Below the pieces are notes generated by a model, which was not told where the DNA came from, did no database searches, and worked only from the letters and a program-made list of their open reading frames with translations. This document shows positions 1-35,500 of a stretch of DNA of 35,662 nt, piece by piece (positions within the stretch are counted from its first letter, which is position 1; each line of letters begins with the position of its first letter). The translations under genes were made by a program, and so were the position numbers. This DNA is from an uncultured virus (IMG/VR IMGVR_UViG_3300020050_008348). Lineage: Duplodnaviria > Heunggongvirae > Uroviricota > Caudoviricetes. Location: IMG/VR virus record IMGVR_UViG_3300020050_008348. One strand, given 5' to 3'.

Positions 1-2
1 TA

Positions 3-914: not shown

Positions 915-3240
915 TCATAGAATAACACAAAGAGAGAAAGATAAAAATGATAAGCAATACTATAAAGATTGTATAAATGATATTATTGCTGTATCAAATG
1001 GTACTTCTTTCACACAAGATACTAATACATTAGGTGTATCTCGTAGATTAAAACTACAAGGTAACTATGATTTATTAAATGGTATTGTTAATCATGCTGA
1101 TTTTACACACGTATTTAATACGTATGGTGTTAATGTAGGAGCTATGCCTGTTAACTTTAGTCACAAAGATATTGTTTCCCCACTATTTAAGTTACTGTTT
1201 GGTATGGAAATGTCCAGACCATTTGAGTGGTCTGTTGTTGCTACTGATGAAGAAGCTACTACACGTTTTGAAAGAGAGTATTATGATAAATTATCTCAAT
1301 CAGTAACAGGTATGCTTATTCAAGAAATACGTACTAAGTTAGAAGCTGAGAATCCTTCTGAAAATATGACACCAGAAGAACGTGATAAGATTAAGCAGAA
1401 AATAGAACAAGAAGTACAAGCACAAACACCAGAACAAGTACAAGCATACATGCAACGCAATTATCAAGATGTTGCAGAGACTATGTGTGAGCAGTTGTTA
1501 AAGTATATCATTAAGGAAGATGATATTGAAGCTAAGTTTTTAAAGAATTGGAAACACGTAATTATTGCAGGATTTGAAATATATTGGACAGGTATCATTA
1601 ATGGTAAACCAACAGTAAAAGTTATTAATCCAATTCATGCGAGTGTAATTGGTAGTAATGATTCACAATATATAGAAGATGCTGATGCAGTATTAGTAGA
1701 ATATTATTTAACTCCTTCACAAATTGTAGAAATATTTGGTACAGAACTTACCAATGACGAAATTGCTCGTTTGTATGATAGCCATTATACTTCATCTGCT
1801 ATATTTGATTGGGAGTATTCATATAGCACTCAGAGGATAGGTACTATACGTGTAATACACGGAGAATGGCAATCATTAAGAAAAATAGGATTTGTTACAC
1901 AAGAAGATGGTAATAAGATAGTTGTATCAGAAGATTACAAACTTAACAAAGAGTTTGGTGATGTTTCTATATCATGGTCTTGGATTCCAGAGACTCACGA
2001 AGGTTATAAGATAGGTACTGATATATATAAATATACTCGCCCTGTACCTAACCAGCATAAAGATTTAGATAACTTGTATCAGAGAAAATTGTCTTACAAA
2101 GGTTATATTTATGATAATCTTAATAGTGAGATGATTTCAATTGCTGATAGAGTGAAACCTTTTGCTTATCTATTTGATATTACAATGTATCGAATAGAAC
2201 AGTTAATGGCATCTGATAAAGGAAAGAAGATAGCGATGAATATGAATGCTATTCCTAAAAGTACAGGTTTTAACTTAGAGAAGTATATGTATTTCTTTGA
2301 CAATAGTCCAAATGTCTTTTTAAATCCTAATCAAGAGGGTATGAAAGGACAGGATAATAGTATAGGTGAAATTGTTAAAGAGATTGATTTATCATTAGCA
2401 AGTGATATTGGTAGATACATTAATTTCTTAGAGTATGTAGAGAGAAAGTGTGGTGAAGTAATTGGTATTAATGAACAAACATTAGGTGCTATTAGAGCAT
2501 CAGAAGCAGTTACTAATGTACGTCAAGCAGTTAATCAAGCATCTTATGTACTTGAACCATATTTTCAAGACCATGCGATGGTTAAACGTAATGTACTACA
2601 AGCAGTAATAGAACAGACTAAGATAGCTTATAGAGGTGTTAAGGGTAAGAAGTTACAATTTGCACTTGATGATTTATCAATAGCTTTTTTAAATATTGAT
2701 GGAGAGTTGTTAGATAATAGTCAATTAGGATTGTATATAGCTAATTCTAAAGATAGTATGGAATTAAAAGAGTTAGCTAAAGAGTTAAGTCATGCAGCAT
2801 TACAGAATCAAATGATTGACTTTAGTGATATTCTTAGAATATATACAAGTAAGAGTGCTAAGAAAACAGAAGAACTGATGAAAGTTGCTGAAAAACGTAA
2901 GCATCAACAGTCAATGGATATTGAGAAGCAGAAACAAGAATTTGAAACTGCTAAAATGAAGATGATTGAAGAATCTAAAGATAGAGATGTGACACGTACT
3001 ATCAAAATTAATGATGCAAAAGAAGCACAAAGACGTACTACTGAGATAGAAAAGCAAACAATACTATCATTAGGATTCAATGAAGATAAAGATGCTAATG
3101 ACAATGGTGTACCAGATACAATAGACCTTATGAGATATGCACTTGATAAGGAAAAATTAGATTTTGAAAAAGCTAAATTTGATAAACAAGTAAGTTTAAA
3201 ACAACAGGAGATTAATAAAAAACCAGCAGTAAGTAAATAA
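904..3240 (+). CDS. Portal protein
   Basis: 778 aa, directly after TerL. Long coiled-coil C-terminus with a DANDNGVPD motif. Size and position match crAss-like portals. Confidence 0.88.
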   Translation: MQINHRITQREKDKNDKQYYKDCINDIIAVSNGTSFTQDTNTLGVSRRLKLQGNYDLLNGIVNHADFTHVFNTYGVNVGAMPVNFSHKDIVSPLFKLLFGMEMSRPFEWSVVATDEEATTRFEREYYDKLSQSVTGMLIQEIRTKLEAENPSENMTPEERDKIKQKIEQEVQAQTPEQVQAYMQRNYQDVAETMCEQLLKYIIKEDDIEAKFLKNWKHVIIAGFEIYWTGIINGKPTVKVINPIHASVIGSNDSQYIEDADAVLVEYYLTPSQIVEIFGTELTNDEIARLYDSHYTSSAIFDWEYSYSTQRIGTIRVIHGEWQSLRKIGFVTQEDGNKIVVSEDYKLNKEFGDVSISWSWIPETHEGYKIGTDIYKYTRPVPNQHKDLDNLYQRKLSYKGYIYDNLNSEMISIADRVKPFAYLFDITMYRIEQLMASDKGKKIAMNMNAIPKSTGFNLEKYMYFFDNSPNVFLNPNQEGMKGQDNSIGEIVKEIDLSLASDIGRYINFLEYVERKCGEVIGINEQTLGAIRASEAVTNVRQAVNQASYVLEPYFQDHAMVKRNVLQAVIEQTKIAYRGVKGKKLQFALDDLSIAFLNIDGELLDNSQLGLYIANSKDSMELKELAKELSHAALQNQMIDFSDILRIYTSKSAKKTEELMKVAEKRKHQQSMDIEKQKQEFETAKMKMIEESKDRDVTRTIKINDAKEAQRRTTEIEKQTILSLGFNEDKDANDNGVPDTIDLMRYALDKEKLDFEKAKFDKQVSLKQQEINKKPAVSK

Positions 3241-3279
3241 TTACCCTTGATAGTATATGTAAACAATATTTCGCTGGAC

Positions 3280-3326
3280 TATTCAGTTTTGAACTGAATA
3301 ATTGTTCAGTTTTACTCTTAACTTTG
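3280..3326 (+). promoter_or_regulatory. Intergenic inverted/direct repeats (TTCAGTT-AACTGAA-TTCAGTT) followed by a Bacteroidota -7 box TAACTTTG (3319-3326)
   Basis: tattcagtt-ttg-aactgaata hairpin at 3280-3300. Second TTCAGTTTT at 3305-3313. TAnnTTTG ends 10 nt before the ATG at 3337. No well-spaced -33 TTTG. Confidence 0.5.
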
Positions 3327-3336
3327 TGAATGTAAA

Positions 3337-4368
3337 ATGGCAGTAGGTATTGATGATTTTAGTTGGGATGATTTTGAAGAAGGTGTAACAACTGATAATC
3401 CACCAACAGAAGAAGATGTTGTTGATAAAACAACAGATGATAAAGATAAAAAAAGTAAAGTTGAAAACGATGACGATTTTGCTTTTGAACCCTTATCAGC
3501 AGATACAGTACCAGATGATAAAGGTGGTACAGTAGTTGAAACAGGTGATGAATCTTTATTAAAAACTCTTAAAGAAAGAGAACTTTTAACAATAGAGTTA
3601 GAAGAAGGAGAAGATTTAGAATCAGCTTATGTTCGACAGTTAGAAAATGATGTAACAGAAGCAGTTGAACAACTTTTTGAAGGTGTCAAAAGAGACAAAG
3701 AAGGTATAGCACTTCTTAAACATTTAAGAGCAGGAGGTTCAGTAGATACTTTTGTAAAAAATAGTAGTTTTGCTATTGATATAGAAGTAGATACAGAGGA
3801 TAAACAAGCAGCACTTATCAAGTCCTATTATGTTAAACGTAAAGGAATGGATAATGATGAAGTGGATGATTTAATTGATACATTGAAAAACAATGGTAAA
3901 TTAGAAGGTCGTGCTGAAAATGTTAAAGCTGCTATTGAAAAAGAACGTGTAGAAGAAACAGCTAATTATGAAGCTACAAAGAAAGCTAATGAAAAGAAAG
4001 CTATTGAGAATCATAAGAAACTAAGAGAATCTTTTACAGGTATTGTAAGAGATACTAAATTTGATTTCAAAGGAATTGGTAAAGATAAAGATGATACTAA
4101 GTTAGTAGATATGCTTACTAAACCAGTTGATAATAGTGGAAGGACACAATTTCATCAAAAGTTAGGTGAATTATTCTTACCAGATAATCACGAAAAGTTG
4201 TTAGTAGTTGCTAAGTTACTTGAAAATGAATTCAATTTCGACAAATTAATAAAGAAAGGAGCTTCGCAACAAGTAGGGATTATTAAGAATAAAGTAGAAA
4301 ATAGGTCAGTCAGTATAAATACAGGTAATGCGAGAAAGACTATTACATTGGCAGACTTAATTGATTAA
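3337..4368 (+). CDS. Putative capsid scaffolding/assembly protein (conserved gene between portal and MCP)
   Basis: 343 aa with a very acidic, low-complexity N-terminus and helical C-terminus. Sits between portal and MCP, as in crAss-like phages. Confidence 0.65.
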   Translation: MAVGIDDFSWDDFEEGVTTDNPPTEEDVVDKTTDDKDKKSKVENDDDFAFEPLSADTVPDDKGGTVVETGDESLLKTLKERELLTIELEEGEDLESAYVRQLENDVTEAVEQLFEGVKRDKEGIALLKHLRAGGSVDTFVKNSSFAIDIEVDTEDKQAALIKSYYVKRKGMDNDEVDDLIDTLKNNGKLEGRAENVKAAIEKERVEETANYEATKKANEKKAIENHKKLRESFTGIVRDTKFDFKGIGKDKDDTKLVDMLTKPVDNSGRTQFHQKLGELFLPDNHEKLLVVAKLLENEFNFDKLIKKGASQQVGIIKNKVENRSVSINTGNARKTITLADLID

Positions 4369-4387
4369 GTAAAAACGATACAATAAT

Positions 4388-5830
4388 ATGGCAGGATTAA
4401 AAAGCTCAATGATTATCAAGAAGATGCCGTGGCATGCCAACATGACAGAAGCAAATCACTTGGGTAGAGCATTGATTACAAAACCTTACGCATTTGAGGG
4501 TAAAATGCGAGAGCTATTTACAACACAATTGTTTAGTGATAACACACTAACTACAATGTTGTCAAATACTAAAGAAGTAACAATTCCATCAGATACATGG
4601 ACTTGGAACTTGAAAACTAATACACGTCGTCCATTGGTATGTCTTGGTGATGTACAATCAACGGTAACACAACCTTGTAAATATAATTCATCAGCGCAAT
4701 TATGGTTAGATGAAAACTGGTATTTAGCAGGTGATATTATCCATCCCGGGGAAGCAGATGGTAAATACCAAGTACGTGTAGTTGATAATCCACGTCGTCA
4801 AGGTACAGGTTGGTTGTATAATGTAGTAGCTGTTAATGATGATGCAGCATTTTTCATTCCTAAGAAATACTTTGCTACTAATGTTCGTTGGTCAAAGCTA
4901 TTTGCTAAATATGAAGAAGGTTCACAACAAAGTGGTTCTACTCAATACAGCTTACCGATAGAACTCGGTCCAGCACGTACATCTATGCTTAGAAAACAAT
5001 ACTCAGTTACAGGTGATGCTGCTAATGAAGTACTTGCAGTTAAGATTCCAGATGGTAAAGGTGGTATGGTTAGTTCATGGGTACGTTATGCAGAAATTGA
5101 ATACTGGAGACAATGGTACAAAGAAATTGAAGCTAACTACTTTTATTCTCGTAGTGCAAAATCAGTAGTTGGTGCTAATGGTCGTCCTGTACAATCTGGT
5201 GCTGGTATGTTTGAATTGTTTGAAGATGCTCATAACCATAAGTATTCAGTACTTACAGGTAAATTGCTTCAAGAGTTCTTAATGGACATATTCTATAATA
5301 GGGTTAAGTTTGCTAATCGTAATCTTACAGTATTTACTGGTGAATATGGTATGTTGGCTTTTCATGGTGCAGTAGTTAAAGACCTTAAAGATTCTGGTTT
5401 TATCATTCCAGTTGATATTAACATTCAAAAAACTACAAGTCCATATCACAGCAATAGCTTGTCTTTTGGTTATCAGTATGTTACATACAAAATGGCTAAT
5501 GGTGCAACAGTTACAGTAGCACATGCACCTATCTTAGATGATAGAGAGTATAATACTGAAATTGACCCAGTTACAGGTTATCCTACACAATCAATGCGCT
5601 TTATGTTCCTTGATTTGGCTGGTGAAAAAGGTGATAATATCAAATTGGTTACTCGTGAAAATAGCTTCAAATTAGGTTATGTTGCTGGTTTGCAAACACC
5701 ATATGGTGTACGTAATGGAGGTGATATGGCTCATAGCGGTGACTACTACGAAATGCACATTCAGAAAAAGTGTGGTATTCAAATTGATGATATTACACGT
5801 TGTGGTCAGTTGATTCTTAGTCGTAACTAA
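4388..5830 (+). CDS. Major capsid protein (HK97 fold, crAss-like)
   Basis: 480 aa with strongly biased codon usage. WHANMTEANHL N-terminus, SGAGMFE and VFTGEYGM motifs resemble crAss-like MCPs. Synteny fits, and a large hairpin follows. Confidence 0.88.
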   Translation: MAGLKSSMIIKKMPWHANMTEANHLGRALITKPYAFEGKMRELFTTQLFSDNTLTTMLSNTKEVTIPSDTWTWNLKTNTRRPLVCLGDVQSTVTQPCKYNSSAQLWLDENWYLAGDIIHPGEADGKYQVRVVDNPRRQGTGWLYNVVAVNDDAAFFIPKKYFATNVRWSKLFAKYEEGSQQSGSTQYSLPIELGPARTSMLRKQYSVTGDAANEVLAVKIPDGKGGMVSSWVRYAEIEYWRQWYKEIEANYFYSRSAKSVVGANGRPVQSGAGMFELFEDAHNHKYSVLTGKLLQEFLMDIFYNRVKFANRNLTVFTGEYGMLAFHGAVVKDLKDSGFIIPVDINIQKTTSPYHSNSLSFGYQYVTYKMANGATVTVAHAPILDDREYNTEIDPVTGYPTQSMRFMFLDLAGEKGDNIKLVTRENSFKLGYVAGLQTPYGVRNGGDMAHSGDYYEMHIQKKCGIQIDDITRCGQLILSRN

Positions 5831-5840
5831 TAATAATGAT

Positions 5841-5916
5841 AGTGTTTCCCACTATGAATAATATATGGTCAAGCTCCACTGAACTTCCATACTTATTATT
5901 TATAGTGGGGAACACT
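5841..5916 (+). repeat. Long intergenic hairpin (about 28 bp stem) built from the TTCCCACTA/TAGTGGGGAA repeat
   Basis: agtgtttcccactatgaataata-tatgg (5841-5868) pairs with ccata-ct-tattatttatagtggggaacact (5887-5916), with two G-U pairs and a 2-nt bulge. Confidence 0.85.
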
Positions 5917-5945
5917 TTTCAATAACTATGTAAAATAAAAGATAA

Positions 5946-6749
5946 ATGAAAGTTGAAATTCGTCCATTGCCTATTACTAAATGGCATGGAAAAACAGGTA
6001 AAGATGAAATTGCTCAACCATTAGTATTAGAGTGTCTAATGGACGGTAGTGGTAAGTATATGACAGGTTTAACACCAGAAGAAGAAGTTGAATATGGTGA
6101 AAAACTCGGTACTACACTAAGTAGTAATTTTAAGTTTGACGAAGCACATCCATTTTATAGTACACGTCAAGCTAAATTAGTATTACCATATCAAACTACT
6201 ATTTTTGATACAACTAATCCAATGGATTTTGTCAAAATTAAGTATGCTAAACATTCACGCTTTATTGCATCTTCTATGAAAGCATGGGAAAATGGTGAAT
6301 CACCAGATGCAGTATTTGTGATTTATAGTGAAGAAGAAGATATGGAAGTCAAAGCATCTAAAGCACAAATCAAAGCACAGGCTTATAAACTTAGCTTTGA
6401 AATGTCTGATGTTATGAAACAACGTGTAATTGCAGTAATGACTGATAAGTTACGTAACTTTAGGTCAGCACGTGGTAAAGATGCAAACTTTTTAACAGTA
6501 GAGATTGAACGTTTAATTGACGAAAATCCAAAACTGTTTATTGAAATTGTATCAGATGATAAGAGTTTGCTTGGTGCTAAAGCTATGGTACTTGAAGCAT
6601 TAGAACAAGGAGTATTAAATAAAGAAGGTAGTGGTGTATATTATATGTCTGATTTATTAGGATATAGTATTGAAGAAGCTGCTGGTTATTTAAGTACACC
6701 AATCAATAGTCAATTAGCAACTCGCATTAAAGATAAGTTAAAGAAATAG
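5946..6749 (+). CDS. Conserved crAss-like protein downstream of MCP (gene 75-like), function unknown
   Basis: 267 aa. Position after MCP, with TGLTPEEE and FDTTNPMDFVK motifs similar to this family as I recall it. Confidence 0.6.
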   Translation: MKVEIRPLPITKWHGKTGKDEIAQPLVLECLMDGSGKYMTGLTPEEEVEYGEKLGTTLSSNFKFDEAHPFYSTRQAKLVLPYQTTIFDTTNPMDFVKIKYAKHSRFIASSMKAWENGESPDAVFVIYSEEEDMEVKASKAQIKAQAYKLSFEMSDVMKQRVIAVMTDKLRNFRSARGKDANFLTVEIERLIDENPKLFIEIVSDDKSLLGAKAMVLEALEQGVLNKEGSGVYYMSDLLGYSIEEAAGYLSTPINSQLATRIKDKLKK

Positions 6750-6752
6750 AAG

Positions 6753-7433
6753 ATGAATATACAAGAAATGCACTTTGCGGTTAAAGCTGGTTTGAATAAA
6801 TTAGATAGTAGTTATCGAAATTTACAAATACCAGAAATAGATTGGTTTTTAAATCAAGCGCAACAAGTATTTGTTAAAGCATGTATGCCGCAAAGTGCGT
6901 CTCTTTTTTTAGGTAGAGAGTTTGAATTGAGCCAACGCACAATAGATAGTATATCAACATTAGTAACACCAACAAAAATTAAAGTTGTAGATAACATTGT
7001 ACCACTTCCAAAAAATTACTACTTTCATGTTTCAAGTTATGTAGAAGCATCTAAAGGTGCTTGTAGTAGAACAATTAGATGTTATCAAGTACAACACGAT
7101 GATTTACATAAAGAATCAAGTAATACAGCATCCAGTTTTGAATGGGATGAATGTAATATAAGTTTTGAAAATACTGGTATTTTATGTTATGTGACTGATT
7201 TTACAGTTAGTAATATGAATCTGGTTTATATACGTGAACCCAAATTAATACACAATGCAGCACAATATAATAATGGTACTTATAACTATTTTGGTACTAC
7301 ATTAACAGGTACATCTAATTGTGAATTACCAGTAATTACACACGATGATATTGTAAGAATAGCTGTATTTTTAGCAAGTAGAGCTATTGAACAACCTACA
7401 TCAAATCAAAAATACGAAGAAACAAAATTATAG
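6753..7433 (+). CDS. Neck/tail ring protein (gene 74-like)
   Basis: 226 aa. MNIQEMH...EIDWFLNQAQ N-terminus and CELPVITHDDIVRIAV C-terminus match the head-tail ring/adaptor pattern. Confidence 0.7.
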   Translation: MNIQEMHFAVKAGLNKLDSSYRNLQIPEIDWFLNQAQQVFVKACMPQSASLFLGREFELSQRTIDSISTLVTPTKIKVVDNIVPLPKNYYFHVSSYVEASKGACSRTIRCYQVQHDDLHKESSNTASSFEWDECNISFENTGILCYVTDFTVSNMNLVYIREPKLIHNAAQYNNGTYNYFGTTLTGTSNCELPVITHDDIVRIAVFLASRAIEQPTSNQKYEETKL

Positions 7434-7455
7434 TAAAATTTTAAATTTATAACAA

Positions 7456-8559
7456 ATGTTAGGAACTAACAATTATCCATTTCAAGTACTTGTTACAAAC
7501 GGTACAAGTGGAGCTTTTGCTAAAGACCAAGCACCTTCTGCATTAGCAATTGGTCAAATTGGTTACTTTGACGCATATACCAATCTATCACTTGACGCAA
7601 CAAATATTGCAAACGTAAAAGACTTTTATGTAGCTGTTGGTACAGATGTTGATGGTACAGGTTCTACTACTGGTATTCTAAAGAGTGCTGGTCAAAAAAT
7701 TCAACGTAAGAATATTAACAACTACACAATTAGTTGTTTTCAAAATCAAGTTGCACAGGTAATACAGGTGACTGGTTTAACTGCTAAATGTGATACTGAT
7801 TATACGTTGTCAATTCAACCACGTAGTCTTGCACTTACACGTAGTTATGGTCAAAACTTTCCACGTATCACATATAATGTACGTACAGGTTGCTGCGAAG
7901 ATTGTGCATCATGCTCAGATGCTACAAGTGCAAATGAATTAGCTAACTTAATGGTTAATGCTATTAATGCAGATACTAATGCTATTGCAACAGCAGTTCT
8001 TTGGGATGCTACTAATAGTGCAGTTATTACAAATCTTGCTACATGGATTGCAGCCAATCCTACACTTACAGCATCTATTCGTATTACAGCTATCTTTGAA
8101 AAAGTAAGTGCTTATGTTTATGGTTTACTTAATGGTGTACAAGATACCCCAAATGGTTTGTCAATGAATGTAACACTTAATAGTGGTTTTGAATGTTCTG
8201 GTACAGTATCAGAAATTACACCATTGTCATTTGCTCGTAATACAGGTGGTGAACTACGTGTACTTGAAGAAGTTGCAAGAGGTTGGTCACCAGAGTTTTT
8301 ACTTTATCGTCAAACTCAAAGTGGTACACCATTGTCAACACGTCCAGTACGTGTTACAGGTACTAAATATTTTGTAGTAACACTTGATTATGTTGATAAT
8401 CATACAGGTGGTTTGGAACAATATCAAGATGTACAACAAACAATTATTGCTGTACCTTGTGGTGGTTCTACTGCATTTCTTACTGTACTTGATGCTCTTA
8501 CAGCAACAGCAGGACAAACAGCATTGAAAGCTACTGCTGACGCATGTCCAGCGTGCTAA
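7456..8559 (+). CDS. Structural protein, probable auxiliary capsid/decoration protein
   Basis: 367 aa, Thr/Ala-rich, with high-expression codon bias. Position matches the auxiliary capsid gene. Carries CCEDCASC and a terminal CPAC. A terminator follows. Confidence 0.55.
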   Translation: MLGTNNYPFQVLVTNGTSGAFAKDQAPSALAIGQIGYFDAYTNLSLDATNIANVKDFYVAVGTDVDGTGSTTGILKSAGQKIQRKNINNYTISCFQNQVAQVIQVTGLTAKCDTDYTLSIQPRSLALTRSYGQNFPRITYNVRTGCCEDCASCSDATSANELANLMVNAINADTNAIATAVLWDATNSAVITNLATWIAANPTLTASIRITAIFEKVSAYVYGLLNGVQDTPNGLSMNVTLNSGFECSGTVSEITPLSFARNTGGELRVLEEVARGWSPEFLLYRQTQSGTPLSTRPVRVTGTKYFVVTLDYVDNHTGGLEQYQDVQQTIIAVPCGGSTAFLTVLDALTATAGQTALKATADACPAC

Positions 8560-8566
8560 TTTAAAT

Positions 8567-8636
8567 GAGTGTTTCCTATTAATAGTAGAGTGTAATTAAG
8601 CTACTATTATTAGTGGGAAACACTCTTTTTTCTTTT
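8567..8636 (+). terminator. Intrinsic terminator-like hairpin made from the TAGTGGGAA repeat
   Basis: gagtgtttcctattaatagtag (8567-8588) pairs with ctactattattagtgggaaacactc (8601-8625), followed by ttttttctttt. Confidence 0.8.
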
Positions 8637-8662
8637 AACAACTAAGTAAAATAAAATACAAC

Positions 8663-9718
8663 ATGTCATATATTTCAGAAGTACAAGCTAAAAAGCTAAT
8701 TTGTGATGCAGCCAGAAACATTCGGCTGTGTGTTGGTATCACAGTAGATGGTACAGTATTAACAAAAGACGATACATTTTATGATTTATTGGTAGCACTT
8801 GATGGTATCAGTGCTGGTAGTGGAACATTTACTACTCTTAGTGGCGATGTAGTTTCTACAAGTACAGGTGGAGCTACTACTATTCAAGCTGGTGTAGTTA
8901 CTAATGCTAAATTAGCAATAGTACCAACACTTACTATTAAAGGTAAAAATACTGCTGGTACAGGTGCACCACTTGATTTAACAGTAGCACAAGTACAAAC
9001 AATGCTTGCTGATGCGGTAGTTGTTACAAGTTCAACAGGTACAAGTAGTGCTTATGCTACTACTGAATATGTTACAGCAGCGGTTACACGCACACTTCCA
9101 ACAGCCGCAACAAGCGATATTGGTAAAACTATTACATATAAAGCTGTTGGTGCAGCAGTTACTATTGCAGTAGGTGGAAATACTATTGATGGTGCTTCAA
9201 GTTCTATTACAATTGCTTCTGGTGATTCAGTAACATTTGCAGTTAGAGTGGCTAATACAGTAGAAAGAGTATATAGTTTAACAGCTACAAGCGGTGGAGG
9301 TTTACCAGTACGTTTACGTTCTAATGGTGCAGATATTAAATATGTAGTTATTAGCGGTACACCAACAGTAACATTTACTAAATCTGGTGGTACAGGTACA
9401 GTTGGTGTAAGTGGTGGTGTGATTGAACCATTACGTGTACAAGTAGATTTTAATACTTCTACTGATACTAACGGTACTAATGATTTCTTGTTAATTGTAC
9501 CTACTACTCAGAGTGGTACAATGTTACAATATCCAACAGTAATGATGGTAAATACACAAAGTGGTGTAGCACCTTCAACAACTGAACATTTGTATAAGAA
9601 TCAAGGTAGTAATCCAGTATTTTCAGTAACAGCAGGTACAGCAGGTACATCTATTACGATTAAAGCAGCAGGAACTAATATTCTTGGTACAACTGCTACA
9701 TTGGTTGCAAATTTCTAA
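8663..9718 (+). CDS. Fibre-like structural protein (head or tail fibre)
   Basis: 351 aa, very T/G/A/V-rich. LSGDV...TIQAGVVTNAKLA shaft-type motif and TLP.A...G..I.IK beta-sandwich motif, both common in phage fibres. Confidence 0.55.
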   Translation: MSYISEVQAKKLICDAARNIRLCVGITVDGTVLTKDDTFYDLLVALDGISAGSGTFTTLSGDVVSTSTGGATTIQAGVVTNAKLAIVPTLTIKGKNTAGTGAPLDLTVAQVQTMLADAVVVTSSTGTSSAYATTEYVTAAVTRTLPTAATSDIGKTITYKAVGAAVTIAVGGNTIDGASSSITIASGDSVTFAVRVANTVERVYSLTATSGGGLPVRLRSNGADIKYVVISGTPTVTFTKSGGTGTVGVSGGVIEPLRVQVDFNTSTDTNGTNDFLLIVPTTQSGTMLQYPTVMMVNTQSGVAPSTTEHLYKNQGSNPVFSVTAGTAGTSITIKAAGTNILGTTATLVANF

Positions 9719-9741
9719 TAACATTATAAAACATATTTGAT

Positions 9742-14373: not shown

Positions 14374-14417
14374 TTATAAAATATAATACAATCAAGTAAA
14401 TTAAAACACAAATTCTT

Positions 14418-14738: not shown

Positions 14739-14745
14739 ATAATCT

Positions 14746-14819
14746 TGTTTCCCACTAATATAGATAGTAAGTGTTGAGTTTAATCTTAGCTTCACTACTA
14801 TCTGTATTAGTGGAAAACA
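14746..14819 (+). repeat. Long intergenic hairpin (about 26 bp stem) of the TTCCCACTA family
   Basis: tgtttcccactaatatagatagtaagtg (14746-14773) pairs with cactactatctgtattagtggaaaaca (14793-14819), with one mismatch, one G-U pair and one bulge. Confidence 0.85.
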
Positions 14820-14839
14820 TTATCAAACAATTAATCAAT

Positions 14840-15334
14840 ATGGTAACAGTAACAAATAGCAAATGGAAAGAAGTATTTTCTAATCCAAGTGCATACATCA
14901 CAATTACAGTAATTGCATTAGGACTACTTAAAACAGTAGGTGTAGATGTGGATGTAACTAATGATGGTAACGTAGATGTAAATGATGCAACTACATTAGT
15001 AAATGGTATGTGGCAAAAACATTTATCTGAAATTGCTGCATTTATAGTACCTATTATTGCTGGACTTGCTGGTAAAATAGCTAAAATAAAGATTAATAAA
15101 GCTGATATTATAGCCTATATTAAAACAAGTAATTTTATAATAGCTATATTTAGTTTAGTTGTTCTTATATTAGGTGTTTTCTTGAATAAAGAATTGGTTA
15201 CTGTTATCATGGTAGTTATTGCTAATATACTTAATTTTGTATATCATTTAAATATACCAACAACTACAACAGTAGCAACACCTATTTCACCTATAAATAT
15301 AGACCTTACAAATGACGATAACACAGAACATTAG
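14840..15334 (+). CDS. Multi-pass membrane protein, holin candidate
   Basis: ATG at 14840 preferred, since the GTG at 14771 lies inside the hairpin. About four hydrophobic helices, with a DVTNDGNVDVND loop after the first. Confidence 0.55.
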   Translation: MVTVTNSKWKEVFSNPSAYITITVIALGLLKTVGVDVDVTNDGNVDVNDATTLVNGMWQKHLSEIAAFIVPIIAGLAGKIAKIKINKADIIAYIKTSNFIIAIFSLVVLILGVFLNKELVTVIMVVIANILNFVYHLNIPTTTTVATPISPINIDLTNDDNTEH

Positions 15335-15767: not shown

Positions 15768-16011
15768 TTGCGTACTTGCTAAAGAAGTAGCTACATATAG
15801 TTTATTAAGTAAACATAGTGTATTAAATAATAGTATTAATCTTACAACTGTAAAAGATTCCATACTAACATTTCTTGATTGTTTACCAGTAAATCAATGT
15901 AGCAACTATGTATATGATTGTGCTACAACTATACCAGCACGATGTAATATAGTTATAAAATTAGATGCTACCACAAGTATCTGTAAAACACCATTAATTC
16001 AATTAATCTAA
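15751..16011 (+). CDS. Small Cys-rich hypothetical protein
   Basis: 86 aa with 6 Cys. Overlaps both neighbours, with TAATG coupling at the 3' end. Confidence 0.55.
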   Translation: MSVTVDCVLAKEVATYSLLSKHSVLNNSINLTTVKDSILTFLDCLPVNQCSNYVYDCATTIPARCNIVIKLDATTSICKTPLIQLI

Positions 16012-18667: not shown

Positions 18668-18695
18668 GAAATACATTTACATAGTTACCTTGTTG

Positions 18696-18739
18696 AAAAG
18701 AATGATGAACTTATTTGGTCATTGTTCTTTTTTTGTTTT
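18696..18739 (+). terminator. Intrinsic terminator-like hairpin ending the fibre block
   Basis: aaaagaatgatga (18696-18708) pairs with tcattgttctttt (18719-18731), 13 bp with 2 G-U pairs, running into a T tract. Confidence 0.6.
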
Positions 18740-18746
18740 ATCTTTG
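18714..18746 (+). promoter_or_regulatory. Bacteroidota primary-sigma promoter TTTG-N21-TATCTTTG
   Basis: TTTG at 18714-18717 and TATCTTTG at 18739-18746, spacer 21 nt. Matches the -33/-7 consensus TTTG-N19-21-TAnnTTTG. Confidence 0.7.
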
Positions 18747-18774
18747 TAGCAATAACTATGTAAAATATATAACG

Positions 18775-20625: not shown

Positions 20626-20631
20626 TTTCAA

Positions 20632-25690: not shown

Positions 25691-27129
25691 AAAAAAGAAT
25701 GAAGTCATACGCGTTTGGCATAGATAGTCTTTTGAAAGATGCACCTGTTGAAGCAGTTGGAGCATTTACTAATTTGATTCCTATTATAGCTGGTGCAATT
25801 AATACAGTTAGTAATGCTAAGAATACTGTACAATATCCTATTACTCAACAGCAACAAATTACATCATTTGCTATGGGTGGTACAGTTGATAGTTCACAAG
25901 TACCAATCAATGTTGAAGGTGGTGAGATAGTAAAAAAACCAGATGGTACACAAATTGAAATGGAAGGTGCTAAACACGAACAAGGTGGTATTGATACACA
26001 AGCACCAGAAGGTACTGTTATATATTCAGATAGACTTAAAGTAGATGGTAAAACATTAGCTGAAAGACAAAAAGCAAGAGCTAAAAAAGAATTGAACTTA
26101 GCTAAGTTACTTGAAGGTGATGAATATGATGCTATTACTAAGAACACTTTAACAAGAGTATCTACGCAGAATAGATTACAAGATGATAAAGATAAGCAGA
26201 TGATGGTATTTGCTAATCAATTGGAAGAACAAGTTGATACTATTAATAAATTTATGAATGGTGGTATGGTTAAGTCTTATGCTAATGGTACACCAGAGTT
26301 AGAAAAATTACCGTTAAGACAATTACCAACAACACTTGAATCAATAGGTATCGGTTTACCTAATGCACCATTCGGTCAAGTAGAATCAACAGGAGATTTT
26401 TCTTCTCTTTTTGATATTCAACCATTACCTATTACTAAAGATAATAGACCAGCACTTCCCACTAATAATAATACTACATCAAGCTCAGATACACCCGATG
26501 AAGATTCATCACTCTTAGGTAATCAAATTGGTACTGCTGGTGCTGCTTTTAGTGCTATCGCACCATTAGCTACTACACTTGCTAATAGAGCAGGAGATAA
26601 AGCTAATACTAACTTCTATAAAACTGTCGGTAATAGAGCATTATCTACACTTGATACAGCAGAAGCTAATGTTAATTCACAACAAGAATTAGCTGAACGT
26701 GAGAATCGTCTGTTAAGTAATACTATGAGTGTTTCTAATCGTAATAATGCTGGTAGTGTTAATACACTTAGAGCTATTGATTCGGCAAGTACAACACAAT
26801 TAGCTGAAAACAATAGTAAAATTGTTGACAACTTCTTACAACAACTTACAGGAATAGCAGGACAGAAAGCTAATGTACAACAACAATCAGATGTACAAAA
26901 TGCACAAGCTGAAACACAACGTGAAACATTTGATAAGCAAGATAGAGATGCTTTTTATACTAACTTAGGTCGTAATCTCAATAACATTGGAACAGTTGCA
27001 CAAACACAAGGTAAAATGTTAAATGAGACACAATCTAATAATGACCAGTTAGATGTAATGAGTCAAATGTCAGCTTATGGTTTAAAGTTCAAAAGAGTTA
27101 ATGGTAAATTAGTACTCGTTAATAAATAA
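25687..27129 (+). CDS. Virion cargo/ejection protein 1
   Basis: 480 aa. INVEGGE...GAKHEQGGI motif and repeated [FY]xxG(G) motifs (SYAFG, SFAMGG, KFMNGG, SYANG). Q/N/A-rich helical C-terminus. Follows the muzzle gene. Confidence 0.65.
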   Translation: MKKRMKSYAFGIDSLLKDAPVEAVGAFTNLIPIIAGAINTVSNAKNTVQYPITQQQQITSFAMGGTVDSSQVPINVEGGEIVKKPDGTQIEMEGAKHEQGGIDTQAPEGTVIYSDRLKVDGKTLAERQKARAKKELNLAKLLEGDEYDAITKNTLTRVSTQNRLQDDKDKQMMVFANQLEEQVDTINKFMNGGMVKSYANGTPELEKLPLRQLPTTLESIGIGLPNAPFGQVESTGDFSSLFDIQPLPITKDNRPALPTNNNTTSSSDTPDEDSSLLGNQIGTAGAAFSAIAPLATTLANRAGDKANTNFYKTVGNRALSTLDTAEANVNSQQELAERENRLLSNTMSVSNRNNAGSVNTLRAIDSASTTQLAENNSKIVDNFLQQLTGIAGQKANVQQQSDVQNAQAETQRETFDKQDRDAFYTNLGRNLNNIGTVAQTQGKMLNETQSNNDQLDVMSQMSAYGLKFKRVNGKLVLVNK

Positions 27130-27134
27130 GAAAC

Positions 27135-29549
27135 ATGGCAAGATTTTATCAGACAGTTGACCCACAATTGGTTGACTATACATATAAGCCACCTATTGAA
27201 TTAATGGGTAAGGTGTTAGAGAATACAGATGCAATGATTGATAAATCATTGGGTACACTTGCTGCATTACCAGAAGCTATTAAAGCTAATGGTATAGAAG
27301 GTGTTGATAAAGATAGAGTAGCTGCTTATGTAAAAGATAAAGAAGCTCAAATAGCACAAATCACTCAAACTATTAGAGAGAATCCACTTGAAGCACGTAA
27401 ACAACGTATGGCTATCTCTAAGTTAGCTGGTGACATTAGTAAAGATATGACTAATGGTGAATTAGCTAACATTACAGCTAATCGTAAAACATTTGATACA
27501 TGGTTTGAAGAACAAAAGAAGCGCATGTATGGTAAGGATGAATATGTTACAGCAGAAGATATATCTAATAGGAGACAACGATTATTAAAAGAATGGAATG
27601 AAGGTGGTGGTACATCTTATAAAGATGGATTAGGTAAACAGTTTAATGCAGACCCACTCACATCAGCAGTTAATTTACAAAAAGAAGCTCTTGCTATTGG
27701 TAAAGATGTTAAACCAGACCAATATAGTAATGTAACATTTGATAAAGCTACTAATAGTTATGTACCATTAGGTAATACGTTATTCAAAAGTAGTGACCCA
27801 GCTTATCTTACTAAATATGCTAATACTATTAAAGTATTAAACGAAGATAAAGTAGCTGGTGCTGTAATGGCTAATTTAATGAATCGTCCAGATGTAGTTA
27901 ATTACTATAAGCAGAAAGTAAATGATGCTAAGATATTAGGTCAAAATTATTCAATGGAAGATGCTATTGTTGAAATGACTAATGCTGCTCAAATAGCTGG
28001 TAAGACATTATCATTCCATGAAGAAGATAAGAAAGAAACATTACATGAAAATTGGAGATACCGTGATAATATAAACTTTCAACAAGACTTGTATAAAATG
28101 CGTCTTAAAGAAAGTTGGGATAGAGGTAAAGAAGATAGAGATGCTGCTCGTGCAGATAAAAAGAAAAAAGAAGAAGAAGCACTTGGTGTAGTAGCATCAT
28201 TTGGTGAATTTCAAATACCTACTGAATCTAATTTGGTAGCTATGAAAGGTAATCTTGAAAGTAAACGTACACAATTAGAAAAGCTACAAGCATTAGCTAA
28301 TAGTGGAAAACTAAGTCAATCAGAAATAAATGCTAATAAGTTAACTATTAATAGTTTAACTGAATCTATTAAAAACGATGAAAGTCAATTAGCATACAGT
28401 GGTCGTACAGTACCATATGATATGACTAAGAAGTTCAACGAGTATAAAATATTGACAAGTAAACAAATGATACCATTAGGTAATGGCACATCTAAACCAC
28501 TATCAGAATTAACTAACGATGATATTGGTATAATGTCAACAGATAGAGGTAATAATTTAGGTAAAGCATATACTGAAAAAGAGATTAAACAATTGATAGA
28601 TTTAAAGTTAATGGGCGATAATCCAGATACTTTCGCTAATACATTTTATACTAATCGTTTAAAAACTAATGATAAACTATCTGCTGAAAGATTAACAGGT
28701 ACAAATAAATTATATGATAGAATAGTAGCACCACTAACTGATATGTTAGCAGTAGAAGAAAAAAACTTTACAGCATTAGCACAAACAAACAAACCAATAA
28801 TTGCAGAAGAAGCTATGGCTTTAGTACCAATTAAAGGTAATGATAAAGAATCAGAAGCATATAGACAAGTACGTGGTTATTTAGCTGGTTCAATCTTTAA
28901 AAACATTACAGCATTTAACACGGTGAATAAAGATGGTACTACCACACCTATTAATGATAGTGGGAAAATAACAGTTTTTGATGAAAAAGGTAAAACTAAA
29001 CAAATAGCTACTGCATCATTACTTCAATCAAGTGATAAAACTACTGTTGGTATGTTTAAACTTGATGGTAAAACTGTAACAGTTGCTAAATTTATGGATA
29101 AAGATGGTAAGTTTATTGGTACAGCTATGTTACAAGGTAAAGATGAAAATCAAGAAACTATTGCAAATAGTGTATATGGTACAATAGCTAAGAATTTACA
29201 ACATAGTGATGATAATGTCACAAGACAGTATGCACTTAATGGTGTAGCATCAAGTGAAATTAGTCATATATCAAGAGGATTAAATGCCAATAAAATGGTA
29301 GTAGGACAATCTAATTCTTATACAGATGGTAGTATCAGATATACAACGACTAAAAACAATAATGGTGATTACATACTTAAAGTACAAAGATTAGACGCTA
29401 ATGGTAATTATATAGATGCTAATAGTGATGTTAATAAACTATATCAACAAGCAACAGGTAATCCAAAAGCAGAATTTGACTTTAAAGCTAAAAACAATAC
29501 AGGTTTAGATAAAATTATTTATACTATTCAACAATTAAAAAATCAATAA
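27135..29549 (+). CDS. Virion cargo/ejection protein 2 (putative)
   Basis: 804 aa, helical and charged, with an MARFY...YKPP N-terminus. Lies between cargo 1 and the giant ORF. Confidence 0.55.
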   Translation: MARFYQTVDPQLVDYTYKPPIELMGKVLENTDAMIDKSLGTLAALPEAIKANGIEGVDKDRVAAYVKDKEAQIAQITQTIRENPLEARKQRMAISKLAGDISKDMTNGELANITANRKTFDTWFEEQKKRMYGKDEYVTAEDISNRRQRLLKEWNEGGGTSYKDGLGKQFNADPLTSAVNLQKEALAIGKDVKPDQYSNVTFDKATNSYVPLGNTLFKSSDPAYLTKYANTIKVLNEDKVAGAVMANLMNRPDVVNYYKQKVNDAKILGQNYSMEDAIVEMTNAAQIAGKTLSFHEEDKKETLHENWRYRDNINFQQDLYKMRLKESWDRGKEDRDAARADKKKKEEEALGVVASFGEFQIPTESNLVAMKGNLESKRTQLEKLQALANSGKLSQSEINANKLTINSLTESIKNDESQLAYSGRTVPYDMTKKFNEYKILTSKQMIPLGNGTSKPLSELTNDDIGIMSTDRGNNLGKAYTEKEIKQLIDLKLMGDNPDTFANTFYTNRLKTNDKLSAERLTGTNKLYDRIVAPLTDMLAVEEKNFTALAQTNKPIIAEEAMALVPIKGNDKESEAYRQVRGYLAGSIFKNITAFNTVNKDGTTTPINDSGKITVFDEKGKTKQIATASLLQSSDKTTVGMFKLDGKTVTVAKFMDKDGKFIGTAMLQGKDENQETIANSVYGTIAKNLQHSDDNVTRQYALNGVASSEISHISRGLNANKMVVGQSNSYTDGSIRYTTTKNNNGDYILKVQRLDANGNYIDANSDVNKLYQQATGNPKAEFDFKAKNNTGLDKIIYTIQQLKNQ

Positions 29550-32500
29550 TGGGAAAAGTAAAAGGTGTAAGTACAGAACCTGTAAATAATATAAATCCAT
29601 TTAAAGAATCTGAACAACACTACGACCAGTTATCTGGTGGTGGTGTTTCTGGTGTAGGTAATAATACTGTTAATACTGATACTGCTGAATTAGCAAAGTT
29701 TCAAGATACTTATGGAGCTAATACAAGTGTTAACTTACTTAATCCAACACAAGTAGCTACTGATGAACAACAAGCTAATAGTGGTGCTTGGAATTGGACT
29801 AAGACAACATTAGCTAAAACACTTGGTAAAGGTGTATTAGGTCTTGGTGAATTAGCTGGTTATGTTGTAAATGTACAAGATTGGGGTATTCAAAATCTAT
29901 GGGGTGGGAAAGTAGATAATCCTTCTAATGCTTTTTCTGAATGGTTTAGAAATAAATCAAAGAAGATAGATGAAAACTATAAGTATAATACAGAAGAAGG
30001 TAAATTAGATATGGGTGATGTAGGTGAGGGTATTTCATCTACACTTAGTAGTACAATACAATTTCTACCATTAGGATTTGGTGTAGGTGGATTATTTGGT
30101 AAAGCATTTGCTGGTATGAAACTTGGTGAAGAAGCTGCATTTATTGGTAGTATGGTTACTATGAATAGAGCAGAAGCACAACAAGCATCAATGGGTGTAT
30201 ATGATAAAGTATTACAAGAACAAACAGCTAAATATGGTAATACGCCAGAAGGTGTAGCTAAAGCTAAAGAAGATGCTGTCAATGCTTACAATACTACAAG
30301 TAATTTGTACGCACTAAATATGATGTTTAATGCAACAAGTACAGCCAAGTTCCTTAAAGGTAATCCATTTGGTATTACACGAATTGAGCGTGAACTTACA
30401 GGACGTAAGTTAAAGAAAGAATTACTAAGTGAAGGTTTACAAGAAGCAGCAGAAGAAGGTATTTCTAATGTATGGGAGAAAGCTGGTGAAGCAGTTGGTA
30501 AAGGTAAATCTATCAAAGACTATTTCTATAATAATGGTAATGTATTTAGTAGTGATGCAGCTAAAGAGTTAGTATCAAAAGATACATTTGAAAATGCTTT
30601 TTGGGGTGCTATTGGTGGTGTCACTAATACAGCAGGTCAACATATTGTAAACAACATTCGTAAAGTAGAAGGTACTGATGGTGTAAGACGCACATACAAT
30701 CAAGAACAAGATAGATTGTTTACTGTATGGGATTCAGCTAAAAAGTCATTGGAGAACATTAGTGCTAATCCAAGTGATGTGTTGAATATTACACATTCAC
30801 AAGAACAGATTAATACTAAGTTTAATGAAATAAACGTGTTGCAAGAATCAGCAGCTAAAGCATATCAAGTTGGTGATAAAGCAACAGGTGATAGTTTTAC
30901 TGAACAAGCTAATGAACTTAAAGCTAAAATAGTAGAATATCAAGCATATACATCGTTTCAAACAGGTACTACTAAAACATTGCTTGACCAATACGATAAT
31001 ATTAATCGTATGTCTGAGCAAGACGCTACTGATAAAGGTTTAGTAGTAGATGTTCGAGCAGATGGTTCTTATAGTGAAGAAGATTATCGTGTTAAATCAG
31101 CTAATGCTAAACAGACTATTATAGAATCTGAAAAGGCTTATAATGCTTCAAAAGGTTATTTGAATAGCGATACTGTATTTAATGGTATTATGTCTATTAA
31201 ACAATTGGAAAAAGCAGTAGCTAAATTAAAAACACAATCTGATATTGCTAATACTATTGCTAAAACAGATATACTCAATGATGAAGAACTGAAAGGAAAA
31301 CTTACAGTACCGAGTGCTGTGGAAGGTGATGCCAACTCCACTACTATTGATATTAGTGGGAAATCACTGTTGTCCGATGAACAAAAAGTTGTTGCAGATA
31401 GTGTTCGTACAGAAGCAACTGGTAAATATGAATCAGTAAAAAATAGCAATGAATTAAATCAACGTTTAGAAGATGTACAAAAAGCATTAATTCAACAACG
31501 TGTTACATTACAAGAAGCTACAAGCAAGCAAACACAAAAGCTATTAGTGCGCCAACAAGTATTTATAAAAGAACTTGGTACTAATAAAACCGATGTTAAT
31601 GAATTAATTGAGAAATATAGTGAAAAAGGTGATTCTAAAATAACTAAAGAGTTTAATGAATCATTGGTACAACTTGGTAAAGTAGTAGACGCTCGTCAAG
31701 AAACACAACGTAAGCGTAATGTTTTAGCTGAACGTAATAAAGTTAAACAACAAACTGCACAAACAGCAATAGCTACTACTACACCTGTATCACAAGAACA
31801 ACAAGCAGAACAAGCTAATACACGTACAACTAATATGCTTACTGGTAATACTGGTGAGGAACTTGGTAATCCTACTGATTTAGGTTGGGCTAATGAAGGT
31901 GATATACCAGTAGATGTAGGTGAAGATTATGGTGAAATGACTGATTTCATTCAAAGAAATGAAGAATCAGAAATATCAGAAGAATTTGGTGAACCTTCTA
32001 CTTATGTAGATGAAACAAATGCTAATAACACACCAAATCAAGAGTTTTCACCAGAGACAGTTAATGCTCTTGGAGCTTATTATAATCCTAATCAATCAAA
32101 GAATCCATCTTTTGCACAAGCTATTGATGATAAGATTGAAGAATTAAATAAGTTAAAGAACTTACTAACAGCATTACATAATGATGGTTTTGAGAATCCT
32201 ACTATCTTTACAGCAGGACAAGTGTTACGTACATGGGTAAAAAATGAAGGAGTATTTAAAGGTATTATGGAACGTATGTTCAAAGTATATACTATTGATA
32301 ATGACCTTAATATGGATTTTCCAAGATTCTGGTCTATTGTCAATAGTGATGATGTTAATGAACAAAATGTGAGTGATGTAGATTCTAATGAAGTAAGAAA
32401 TGAGATTGATAGAATAGTAGAACAACACTTTACTTATGACAATACATATCCTACTAACAAATTAGCATATCTTACTCAGAACTTTACACGTAACGCAGAT

Positions 32501-35500
32501 GGTACTATAACCAATGGTTCTATATTACCAGAGTATTTGTATGTACTAAACCCAAATAATGTACATACTGGTACTGGTATTAACCTATCTTATGGTGATT
32601 TTAATAAAGAGTTTGATTGGGTAAATAAACAAGGTAATAAAGTTAAAGCTACATTCAATGATTATGCTGAACAACGTGGTTGGAAACCAGATAGTCAAGA
32701 ATGGAAAGATAATGTACCTATTGCTATTACTGATGATAAAGGTGTATTGATTGGTTATGTACATAAAGTATCATTTGCATTTAGTCAAAATATTGATAGT
32801 GTACGTGCATATAGAAATTTAATTGTACAATCTACTAAAGAAGATGGTACACTTGATTTAAAAGGTAAAATTAGTAGTGTCGGTGATGGTGAATTACTAT
32901 TTGGTGATGTAGCTAAATCACTTAATCAAGCTAATCAAGAATGGCAGGTTGGTACAATGCGTTCAGATGCGTTTTATAATTCAGATGGACAAATTATACC
33001 TAATGAACAAATATACAATAAGAACTTTAATCCTCCATTTGGTAAGATTTACGACTTACGTTGGATTAAAAATAATGAAGATGGTAAGCCTGTATATGTT
33101 GCTTTACCTATTGACCAAACACGTCTTGACAACAAACAAGTAGATATGCTCGTCAAAGCTGTTGAAATTTATGTCCGTCAAGATGTTGACAATCCAATCG
33201 TTGCTCAAATCAAAAATGAAACAGGATTCTCAATTCTTGAAGCAGAAAATCTTGAAAAGTTCTTTAACTTGTATATTAATACATTCAAGTTAAATCGTGT
33301 TGATAGAGAAGGTTCAGTACATGAGATAGCTACACGTAATATTCATAAAGGTAGCGGTACACCGTATGTTACGTTTGTAGCAGCAACAGGTATTATATCA
33401 TTTGGTAATACAGGTAGTAAAACATATAATAGTACTAAAGTAGGTGACACTAACTTAGGATTAACTTTAGTTAATCTACGTAATATACTTGAACAAAAGA
33501 AATCACATACTAAAGTTGATTATCTTAAAGATAATAAGAAAATAGTTTATCTTGAAAATGGTCAAATTACAAGTAAATTGTATAAAGAACATGTTGGAGA
33601 ACAGTTAAAAACTAATATTAATAGTATTAATGTTAATGAAGGTTTAAAGAACTCCGATGGTACTGATGTAAAACCATTAATGGTTACTATGATTCAACCT
33701 GTAATTAGGTTTGATGTAGATTTTGGATATGATAATCAAGTGTCAACAGATAAAAGTGATGTAGTTGAGGGTGTTGCTAATACGATTCCCACTAATAGTA
33801 ATGATAGTGGAGCTTCATCAAGCACAGATGAACTCACACTACTTGCATCTGAATTTGACTTAACTGATATGGATTTCGACTTACCAGTAGATAGTTCATT
33901 CAGTCCAGTAATTGCTACTGATGTTAGTAGTCAGTTAGAAACACTTATGTCTGAACATAAGGTTACTGGTATATCTCTTGGTCAACAATATCAATTAGTA
34001 GATTATCTATACAACGAAGCATCATTTGAACTTAATCAAAAAGGTAATTTAGAAGGTAAACAAGTACTTGAATCACTCACTGATAAATTAGGATTCTTTA
34101 TTGATGGTGCTACTGCTAAAACTCGTAGTATAATAGCTAAACTTACAGCATTTAAAGAGAAAATAGCTTCAATACCAACAGAAGAAGCTGTTGCTAAATT
34201 TAATCAAGTAACTGATTTAATAGCATATCACAATAAGAACTTAGGTGTATTAGAAGGTTTACGTACAGAACAAGAACAATCTAAATTATTTACACAAGCA
34301 TTTGATAAATTGATTCAACTCACTGGTGCTAAAGTTAAACGTAAAGGTACTAAGGTTAAAACACAAGACCCTACTACTATTCAAGAGATAGAAGGTAGTA
34401 ATCTTACTATTGAAGATACTAAAGAAGATGATATTACAGTAGAGGAACAATCAGAAAAGATTTACAGTAAACAAGGCTTTGAAGAAAATCCAGCAGATAG
34501 TATTAGTTTCAAACTAAAACGCTTTATGTCAGGTATCAATCAGGTTGGTACTGATGGTAAAACTAAATATGGATTCTTAGATGTACCTCTATTTGTAGAT
34601 TTCAAAGAGTGTTTTTCAGTGGTTAAGAGTTTAACAGCTAATACTCCGAGTGATTATCAACTAATGATTGATAAATTGAGTGATAAATATGAGCAATATC
34701 CTTTCTTACGTCAATTTGTAGAACGTATGAATACTCAACCAAAGGATATTAAAAATCAATTTGTTACAGCAATGTCACAAGGTACTGTTAATATGACTTT
34801 TGTAACCTACAAAGCTACAACAGATGGTATTACTATTAGTACATTTAATGCTAATTCATCTAATAAGCAACAAGTTATATTTGAGAATTGGAATAGTGCA
34901 TCATTCGGTACAGATTTAGTAACTAATATTGATGGTAAATGGCAAGTTAATCAAGAGAAAGCTAATGAGATTAGAGAAATCTATAAAGAGTGGACACCTC
35001 GTCTCGTTGCTAAAAAATATGATGTAACTAAACCAGAAATGGTAGCAGAAGAAGCTAAATATTTACAAGATTTTTTGAAACGATTTGGTATAGATTTACA
35101 TGATAAAGTTGCTACTTTAATTGTTAGTGGGGAACTTACTGTCAATGGTAAGAAAATACCTTACAGAAATCAGTTAAGTAATGCTAATGTTACAGGTAGA
35201 TTGATATATGAACTTACAGCAGCATTATCTAATACAGATATAGTTGATGGTGATTCTATATTACGTAGAACTAACTTTGTAAGCACATTAGTACGTAATG
35301 AATCATTTTATAATAAATATGTAGAAGCTAATTCGTTTAGAGCGGAAGATAAACAAATATACAACTATACTAATAACCACTATGCTTTTGATAGAGTAAG
35401 AGAATTAGTAAGTGATGCTAACTTACGTGATGAATATAGAAGTACATCATTCGCTAAGAATAGTATGTATCTTCAATTGTTGGAGTTACAACAATTTAAA

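Follow-up and report, generated by a model that had tools for sequence, protein, structure and literature searches.

A dispersed, strand-oriented DNA word in a crAss-like phage

Several described systems scatter short sequence words through DNA. The stoperators of cluster A mycobacteriophages and the dispersed operators of phage P1 comprise dozens of dispersed asymmetric sites whose spelling varies between lineages; stoperators are mostly intergenic, follow the direction of transcription and belong to temperate phages. The DNA uptake sequences of Neisseriaceae and Pasteurellaceae arise as genic singles by substitution, form hairpin stems as inverted pairs and are orientation-independent. Promoters of single-subunit phage RNA polymerases are words of ~20 nt that end in a G-run and whose spelling is private to each lineage. 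In tf-like Pseudomonas phages, the nick motif WACTRTGAC is conserved across the phage group, and its function is given as unknown in the accessible text of its description (PMC11780129). The element treated here is TTCCCACTA, a 9-mer dispersed through 35,662 nucleotides of an uncultured member of the Caudoviricetes (IMG/VR record IMGVR_UViG_3300020050_008348), a stretch of DNA referred to below, at its full length, as the window.

Enrichment, anatomy and turnover of the word

The word is real, selected at the DNA level, turned over by substitution, lineage-specific and strand-oriented. A sequence-only reading of the window had placed 11 exact copies of TTCCCACTA in it; all 11 are found at its coordinates, four on the + strand and seven on the - strand, and the 18-nt identities that it reported (8605 with 22849, and 22846-22863 with the reverse complement of 26456-26473) are exact. 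TTCCCACTA is the commonest 9-mer of the window, above the AT-rich 9-mers, whereas 100 dinucleotide shuffles give a mean of 0.27 copies and a maximum of 2. With up to one mismatch allowed, 23 sites occur against 7.6 +/- 2.9 expected (maximum 15), and the 12-mer TATTAGTGGGAA has seven copies. Five of the near-copies proposed earlier (1177, 5903, 14808, 21878 and 35125) differ by one mismatch each; another, at 16163, is instead a variant with a run of five C. Copies do occur on both strands, within genes and between them, as had been described, with three exact copies intergenic and eight in seven ORFs (open reading frames).

Codon usage does not account for the genic copies. Their expected number is 0.18 when synonymous codons are shuffled and 0.09 when codon order is shuffled, against eight observed, and 0 of 1000 shuffles reach eight under either codon-preserving null. 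Since the encoded peptides (ISGK/N, DSGK, IVGI, L/IPTN) and the reading frames both vary, the constraint acts on DNA. The earlier proposal of selection at the nucleic-acid level, independent of frame and strand, is borne out by the dinucleotide and codon nulls together with the turnover by substitution described below.

An asymmetric word of ~19 nt has TTCCCACTA as its core; on its G-rich strand the word reads as an AT-rich tail of ~10 nt followed by TAGTGGGRA. The R position is G in the near-copies at 1176, 5903 and 35125, and the run is longer at 16163. The consensus of 20 oriented copies, taken from the extended sequence described next and from a relative, is aagTGTTTCCCACTAATAaTAATAGtag. 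When a second half-site was sought at a fixed distance, just a weak signal emerged, for a spacer of 7 nt, and ATA periodicity confounds it.

A contig (G001, reversed) that matches window positions 1-21463 at 100% identity adds 5786 bp upstream, and its upstream part was joined to the window to give an extended sequence of 41,448 bp. In these 41.4 kb the pattern TAGTG{3,5}AA has 18 matches, against 0.36 (maximum 3) in Markov simulations, split 11 versus 7 between the strands and with a largest gap of 4967 bp; the density is ~one word per 2.3 kb. The spacing of all 18 sites is more even than random (coefficient of variation 0.57, P 0.007). Copies also lie upstream of the terminase gene, so that the earlier phrase "across the late module" proves too narrow, and in two further crAss-like genomes the equivalent words are found across the early module as well as the late one. 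The identical contig G001 carries eight copies, and G002, a relative with 78% nucleotide identity across window 1-10202, carries seven.

The window carries terminase, portal and major head protein genes (PHROGs), genes for tail ring proteins 2 and 1 and a muzzle protein (Pfam), and all of its long ORFs on the + strand, and is therefore assigned to the late module of a crAss-like phage. A giant ORF starts at 29549 and runs beyond the window end. The measured G+C of 0.316 agrees with the earlier estimate, by eye, of about 31%. Among cultured phages, the nearest relatives are those of Flavobacterium psychrophilum, FpV4 for example (head protein identity 49%). Neither repressor or integrase genes nor a T7-like polymerase gene were found in the window, and Rfam gave 0 matches.

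Comparison with G002 reveals how the word is gained and lost. Of eight words in the aligned part of the extended sequence, five are also words in G002 (one of them, at the contig start, was matched by eye where MAFFT misaligned), whereas just 18% of the ungapped 9-mer windows match exactly in the two. The three other words, and two words found only in G002, face 1-4 substitutions or a degenerate arm, with no insertion of a word. Hairpins that contain paired copies hold their position and arms between the two sequences while their loops diverge. The dispersal of the copies, some of them in inverted pairs, had suggested a miniature mobile element of the REP/MITE type. Because words come and go by substitution without insertion, such an element is ruled out: the genic copies align to near-copies in the 78%-identical relative without indels, and the hairpins hold their positions. 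In metagenomes, moreover, the 9-mer's inverted pairs are part of unrelated repeat families with no tblastx match to the window phage. For the genic copies the mobile-element explanation stands refuted, and overall it is barely credible.

Paired copies, hairpins and single copies

Close pairs of words are tail-to-tail in five cases out of five: at -5401, upstream of the window, and at 5846/5903, about 8573/8611, 9766/9782 and 14749/14808. Four of these pairs were folded and form long hairpins of about -20 to -38 kcal/mol (z -7.2 to -9.5), three of which are followed by a T-rich run. The first hairpin (5838-5922; RNA fold -37.8 kcal/mol, z -9.5), kept in G002, holds in its left arm an exact, intergenic TTCCCACTA after the major head protein gene (5846-5854, + strand) and in its right arm a - strand variant at 5903-5912, which reads TAGTGGGGAA on the + strand. 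In the intergenic hairpin at 8568-8628 (-29.4 kcal/mol, z -7.2), a degenerate left arm, TTTCCTATTA, faces an exact copy in the right arm (8611-8619, - strand), after which comes a T-run. The hairpin at 9760-9802 (-20.3 kcal/mol, z -7.6) joins an exact copy at 9782-9790 (- strand), in codons 9-17 of ORF 9742-14373, to its partner TTCCCATTA at 9766-9774; G002 keeps the pairing with both arms changed. The intergenic hairpin at 14742-14824 (-35.1 kcal/mol, z -8.8) has an exact copy in its left arm (14749-14757, + strand), one mismatch in its right arm (14808-14816) and no T-run after it.

Two of these hairpins touch coding sequence. The first 20 codons of a 1543-residue ORF contain the hairpin of the 9766/9782 pair (window 9742-9810) and specify a hydrophobic segment, MLKKISIVFPLLFIVGILF, that resembles a signal peptide; G002 retains this hydrophobic stretch as well as the pairing. 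At 14771-14840, ORF 14771-15334 has a GTG start that overlaps the hairpin; the ATG at 14840 is more likely to be where this ORF begins.

The exact copies outside these pairs are single and genic. On the - strand they lie within ORF 17450-18667 (18433-18441), the tail ring protein 2 gene (19660-19668), the muzzle protein gene (22855-22863), ORF 27135-29549 (28958-28966) and the giant ORF (31354-31362); on the + strand they lie within ORF 25687-27129 (26456-26464) and, again, the giant ORF (33786-33794). Variants occur within the portal gene (TTCCCCACTA, 1176-1185, + strand), ORF 16011-17456 (TTCCCCCACTA, 16163-16173, + strand) and the giant ORF (35125-35134, - strand, TAGTGGGGAA on the + strand).

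The strength of the hairpins raises the question of whether a family of terminators is primary and the genic singles are its spill-over, arising by chance or by gene conversion. Such a family would look like the four strong hairpins (z -7 to -9.5) that have the word in both arms, three of which lead into T-rich runs. Nevertheless, a simple consensus terminator scan flagged none of them, and one lies within a coding 5' end. Eight genic copies against 0.18 expected are not a matter of chance, and single copies, including the genic ones, do not fold with unusual stability. The equivalent words of two other crAss-like phages, G003 and CrAssphage ZA, are also mostly single. This already disfavoured account is highly improbable. 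In G003, a complete 93.7-kb relative with terminal repeats, a different and unrelated G+C-rich hairpin follows the head gene without G003's own word. The function of the hairpin is therefore independent of the word, which in the window's lineage simply occupies the arms of pre-existing hairpins.

Spellings in other crAss-like phages and searches of bacterial DNA

The exact 9-mer TTCCCACTA is absent from four more distant relatives, and other words take its place in some crAss-like phages. G003 carries CCCTGYCAG 26 times, in both modules and with a T-tract before it; seven copies are intergenic, nine lie on the coding strand and ten on the opposite strand, and their spacing gives P 0.0065 for the minus strand and P 0.10 for the plus strand. 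CrAssphage ZA carries TACGGGGRGT 17 times (six forward, 11 reverse; control 0), every copy preceded by a pyrimidine-rich tail. TAGTGGGRA and the ZA word can be aligned as TA, one or two variable bases, GGG and R. In a further relative (L120), TCCCGGT occurs 14 times in 21 kb, and some of these copies come from collagen-like Pro-Gly codons.

Other repeats were noted in crAss-like genomes. CrAssphage ZA has one tail-to-tail pair ~100 bp apart in intergenic DNA just upstream of a RepL-like gene (MK238400.1 28205-28317, L304). G003 contains five copies of GGATTCGAAC (L130-L134), which suggests a tRNA gene cluster. In FpV4 (NC_041872.1; L140:1-400, L141:38690-42800), there are four exact copies and one near-copy of CCCTCACTTA, all of them intergenic and in minus-strand orientation, where the early gene block begins; they resemble early promoters.

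A signal shared with the host would be another way to explain the word. Uptake sequences combine genic singles with inverted hairpin pairs at a similar density, one per 2-3 kb, and a phage might mimic a host-read signal of this kind or a Chi site. Hundreds of copies would then be expected in the host genome. In the genomes searched, however, the 9-mer stands at control level (five Bacteroidota genomes), the 11-mer reaches at most seven copies per genome and no more than its control (401 Flavobacteriaceae genomes, 268 with at least one copy), and the 12-mer reaches at most four per genome (151 Bacteroidota genomes), against seven in the 35.7-kb window. An inverted-pair scan of bacterial DNA returned scattered taxa, with no genome above two among the 80 matches listed of at least 120. 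The word is not abundant in any sampled bacterial genome, a result that covers the genomes searched, the host not being identified. Host reading is already weakened by these counts and is very improbable indeed, somewhat more so than a terminator family.

A scan with the head protein found no relative among genome contigs, and the protein scan of metagenomes found none either. A 14-mer scan of viral sequences returned more than 112 single matches and was uninformative. Long-loop pairs occurred in five viral stretches, of which just the two from G002 are related to the window phage, and short-loop pairs in 36 viral contigs, roughly the chance level. Eighty primase-bearing crAss-like loci (1.13 Mb), sought as the early region, held three words in total and none held two or more. 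Single-strand repeats, probably of tandem or coding origin, were seen at two crAss-like replication-module loci, L324 and L385 (ACCATCACC, 20 copies; GGATATGGA, 16 copies). In the k-mer counts of the neighbourhood, coding repeats drowned out everything else. The metagenome pair scan yielded 119 stretches (L391-L509), the source of the unrelated repeat families mentioned above; many of these contigs carry a MITE-like family with ends TTCCCACTAG...CTAGTGGGAA and an ATAA-rich core, and others carry arrays of CCCACTAGTGGG palindromes, with no homology to the window phage.

On balance, the word is probably a cis signal of the crAss class that the phage itself reads, a general claim distinct from any priming mechanism. 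Selection would maintain the word on both strands, at a density of about one per 2.3 kb. Copies would be written into coding sequence through point substitution and rare codons, and tail-to-tail copies would be packed into the arms of hairpins whose existence does not depend on the word. The word would then be this lineage's own spelling of a genome-wide signal that other crAss-like phages spell differently. Because the spelling differs between crAss-like lineages, we infer a phage-encoded reader whose specificity co-evolves with the word.

Several observations weigh against a phage-read signal of this class. No reader has been identified for the word. Applied to phi14:2, whose transcription has been mapped, and to G004, the same k-mer method detected no word, and in FpV4 it gave just a weak 8-mer (GGAGCAAC, 13 copies), so that the signal is either not universal or sometimes too degenerate for detection. 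In the accessible text of the phi14:2 bioRxiv preprint, early transcripts lack a common upstream motif. The window and G003 do not share word positions, apart from a single same-orientation near-match, 35 residues apart, in the muzzle gene. Within each strand of the extended sequence, spacing is not significantly even (P about 0.1 each), and coverage of the whole genome in the window's lineage is extrapolated from the other lineages. As for the literature, searches turned up no account of words of this kind, although motifs may be listed in the supplements to the phi14:2 preprint. In the parts of a 2023 Crassvirales review that were available (PMC10136315), "DNA motif" and "promoter" have 0 occurrences and the replication mode is called unknown. 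The phi14:2 preprint does describe, in its accessible text, host-type middle promoters, a different signal in mostly sense orientation.

Candidate roles and comparison with known systems

If the word is a phage-read signal, the role that ranks first is that of an oriented initiation site for strand synthesis, followed by a binding site for an HU/IHF-like protein and then by a nick site. The initiation role is favoured because both strands need starts and the pairs are tail-to-tail, and it is put forward as a tentative mechanism. A phage enzyme would start a primer or transcript on the word's strand; priming could then reach both strands over the full length of the genome, with tail-to-tail pairs serving as starts in both directions. 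More speculatively still, crAss-like phages may replicate without relying on one fixed origin, through lineage-private start words on both strands that are read by a co-evolving polymerase or primase, possibly the virion RNA polymerase acting on single-stranded templates.

The words might instead be high-affinity sites for a phage HU/IHF-like architectural protein, which would bend DNA at intervals for compaction, packaging or ejection. The word is asymmetric, with an AT-rich tract and a conserved core. This outline may resemble that of IHF sites, although the nearly invariant 9-bp core is unusually strict for the HU/IHF family. Binding to double-stranded DNA would explain the indifference to gene orientation. 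IHF is also among the eight hallmark genes of the crAss structural block, according to the available text of the Crassvirales review (PMC10136315). A candidate reader, possibly HU/IHF-like, is the fast-diverging ORF 20083-20625 (+ strand), which lies between two ring-protein genes. It shares ~21% identity with its syntenic orthologues in G003 and FpV4, against 27-56% for the neighbouring genes, a divergence that would fit co-evolving specificity. The earlier label "IHF-like" for this ORF is no more than a lead: the ESM-Atlas clusters nearest to it bear the name HU/IHF (score 0.94), whereas no Pfam or PDB sequence match was found and the AlphaFold model is poor (pLDDT 54), with no Foldseek match at E <= 0.001. 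The ORF and its counterparts keep a G..V.LP..G..I.G motif. Neither phi14:2 nor G004 yielded a word, and of these two it is for phi14:2 alone that the accessible text of the preprint names an IHF subunit (gp074). Taken together, these points leave the architectural role doubtful, behind initiation.

As a further role, the words could mark where virion DNA is nicked, site-specifically and in a single strand, in the manner of T5 and the tf/Rembedalsseter group. The published nick motif WACTRTGAC is likewise a 9-mer, with about 13 copies per 45 kb and some of these inside coding sequences, in the accessible text of its description (PMC11780129), and the late module includes, at 18715-19449, a gene for a PD-(D/E)XK-type exonuclease. 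Against this role, the same text places known nick motifs on one strand, whereas the word is split 11 to 7, and tail-to-tail pairs 7-67 bp apart would nick opposite strands closely, risking double-strand breaks. Nicking is accordingly less likely than architectural binding, and we regard it as a poor candidate.

Operator-like sites bound by a repressor or roadblock protein of the phage, comparable to the cluster A stoperators and the dispersed operators of P1, would account for many dispersed, asymmetric sites with a spelling that changes between lineages. Most exact copies are genic, however (8 of 11), orientation shows no bias with respect to transcription (nine same and ten opposite in G003), and the window holds no repressor or integrase gene. 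An operator role is improbable, more so than nicking.

The question of a phage-encoded reader matters beyond this lineage. In the gut and in aquatic Bacteroidota, crAss-like phages rank with the most abundant viruses, and a word that overrides codon choice in essential genes and is respelled in each lineage would imply an undescribed sequence-specific reader and a whole-genome process. Identifying the reader would open replication, packaging or genome-wide control to direct testing and would also supply a sequence marker for lineages.

The closest parallels lie within the crAss-like phages. The G003 and CrAssphage ZA words are likewise lineage-private, occur on both strands at intervals of a few kb and run through genes, and the ZA layout is like that of the window: a pyrimidine tail (AT-rich in the window), TA, a G-run and a purine. 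Compared with the crAss-like words as a class, the window's word has a shorter core, a higher density (about one per 2.3 kb) and five tail-to-tail pairs in long hairpins; the G003 and ZA words are mostly single. Beyond the crAss-like phages, WACTRTGAC of the tf/Rembedalsseter group is the nearest published analogue, sharing the 9-mer length, a copy number of about 13 and the location in coding sequence; in the available text of its description (PMC11780129) it occupies one strand and is concentrated towards one genome side, whereas the window's word is spread out over both strands. The virion polymerase found in crAss-like phages, as far as the available sources go, belongs to a different family from the single-subunit type and has no known promoter.

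Promoters of single-subunit polymerases share with the window's word a length of ~20 nt, a G-run at the end and a private spelling; those promoters are intergenic and co-oriented with genes, which the copies of the word as a whole are not. Unlike stoperators, it is mostly genic and stands in either orientation. Like uptake sequences, it combines genic singles born by substitution with inverted pairs that form stems, in either orientation, yet uptake sequences characterise host genomes, where they number in the hundreds to thousands, and no sampled Bacteroidota genome carries the word in this way.

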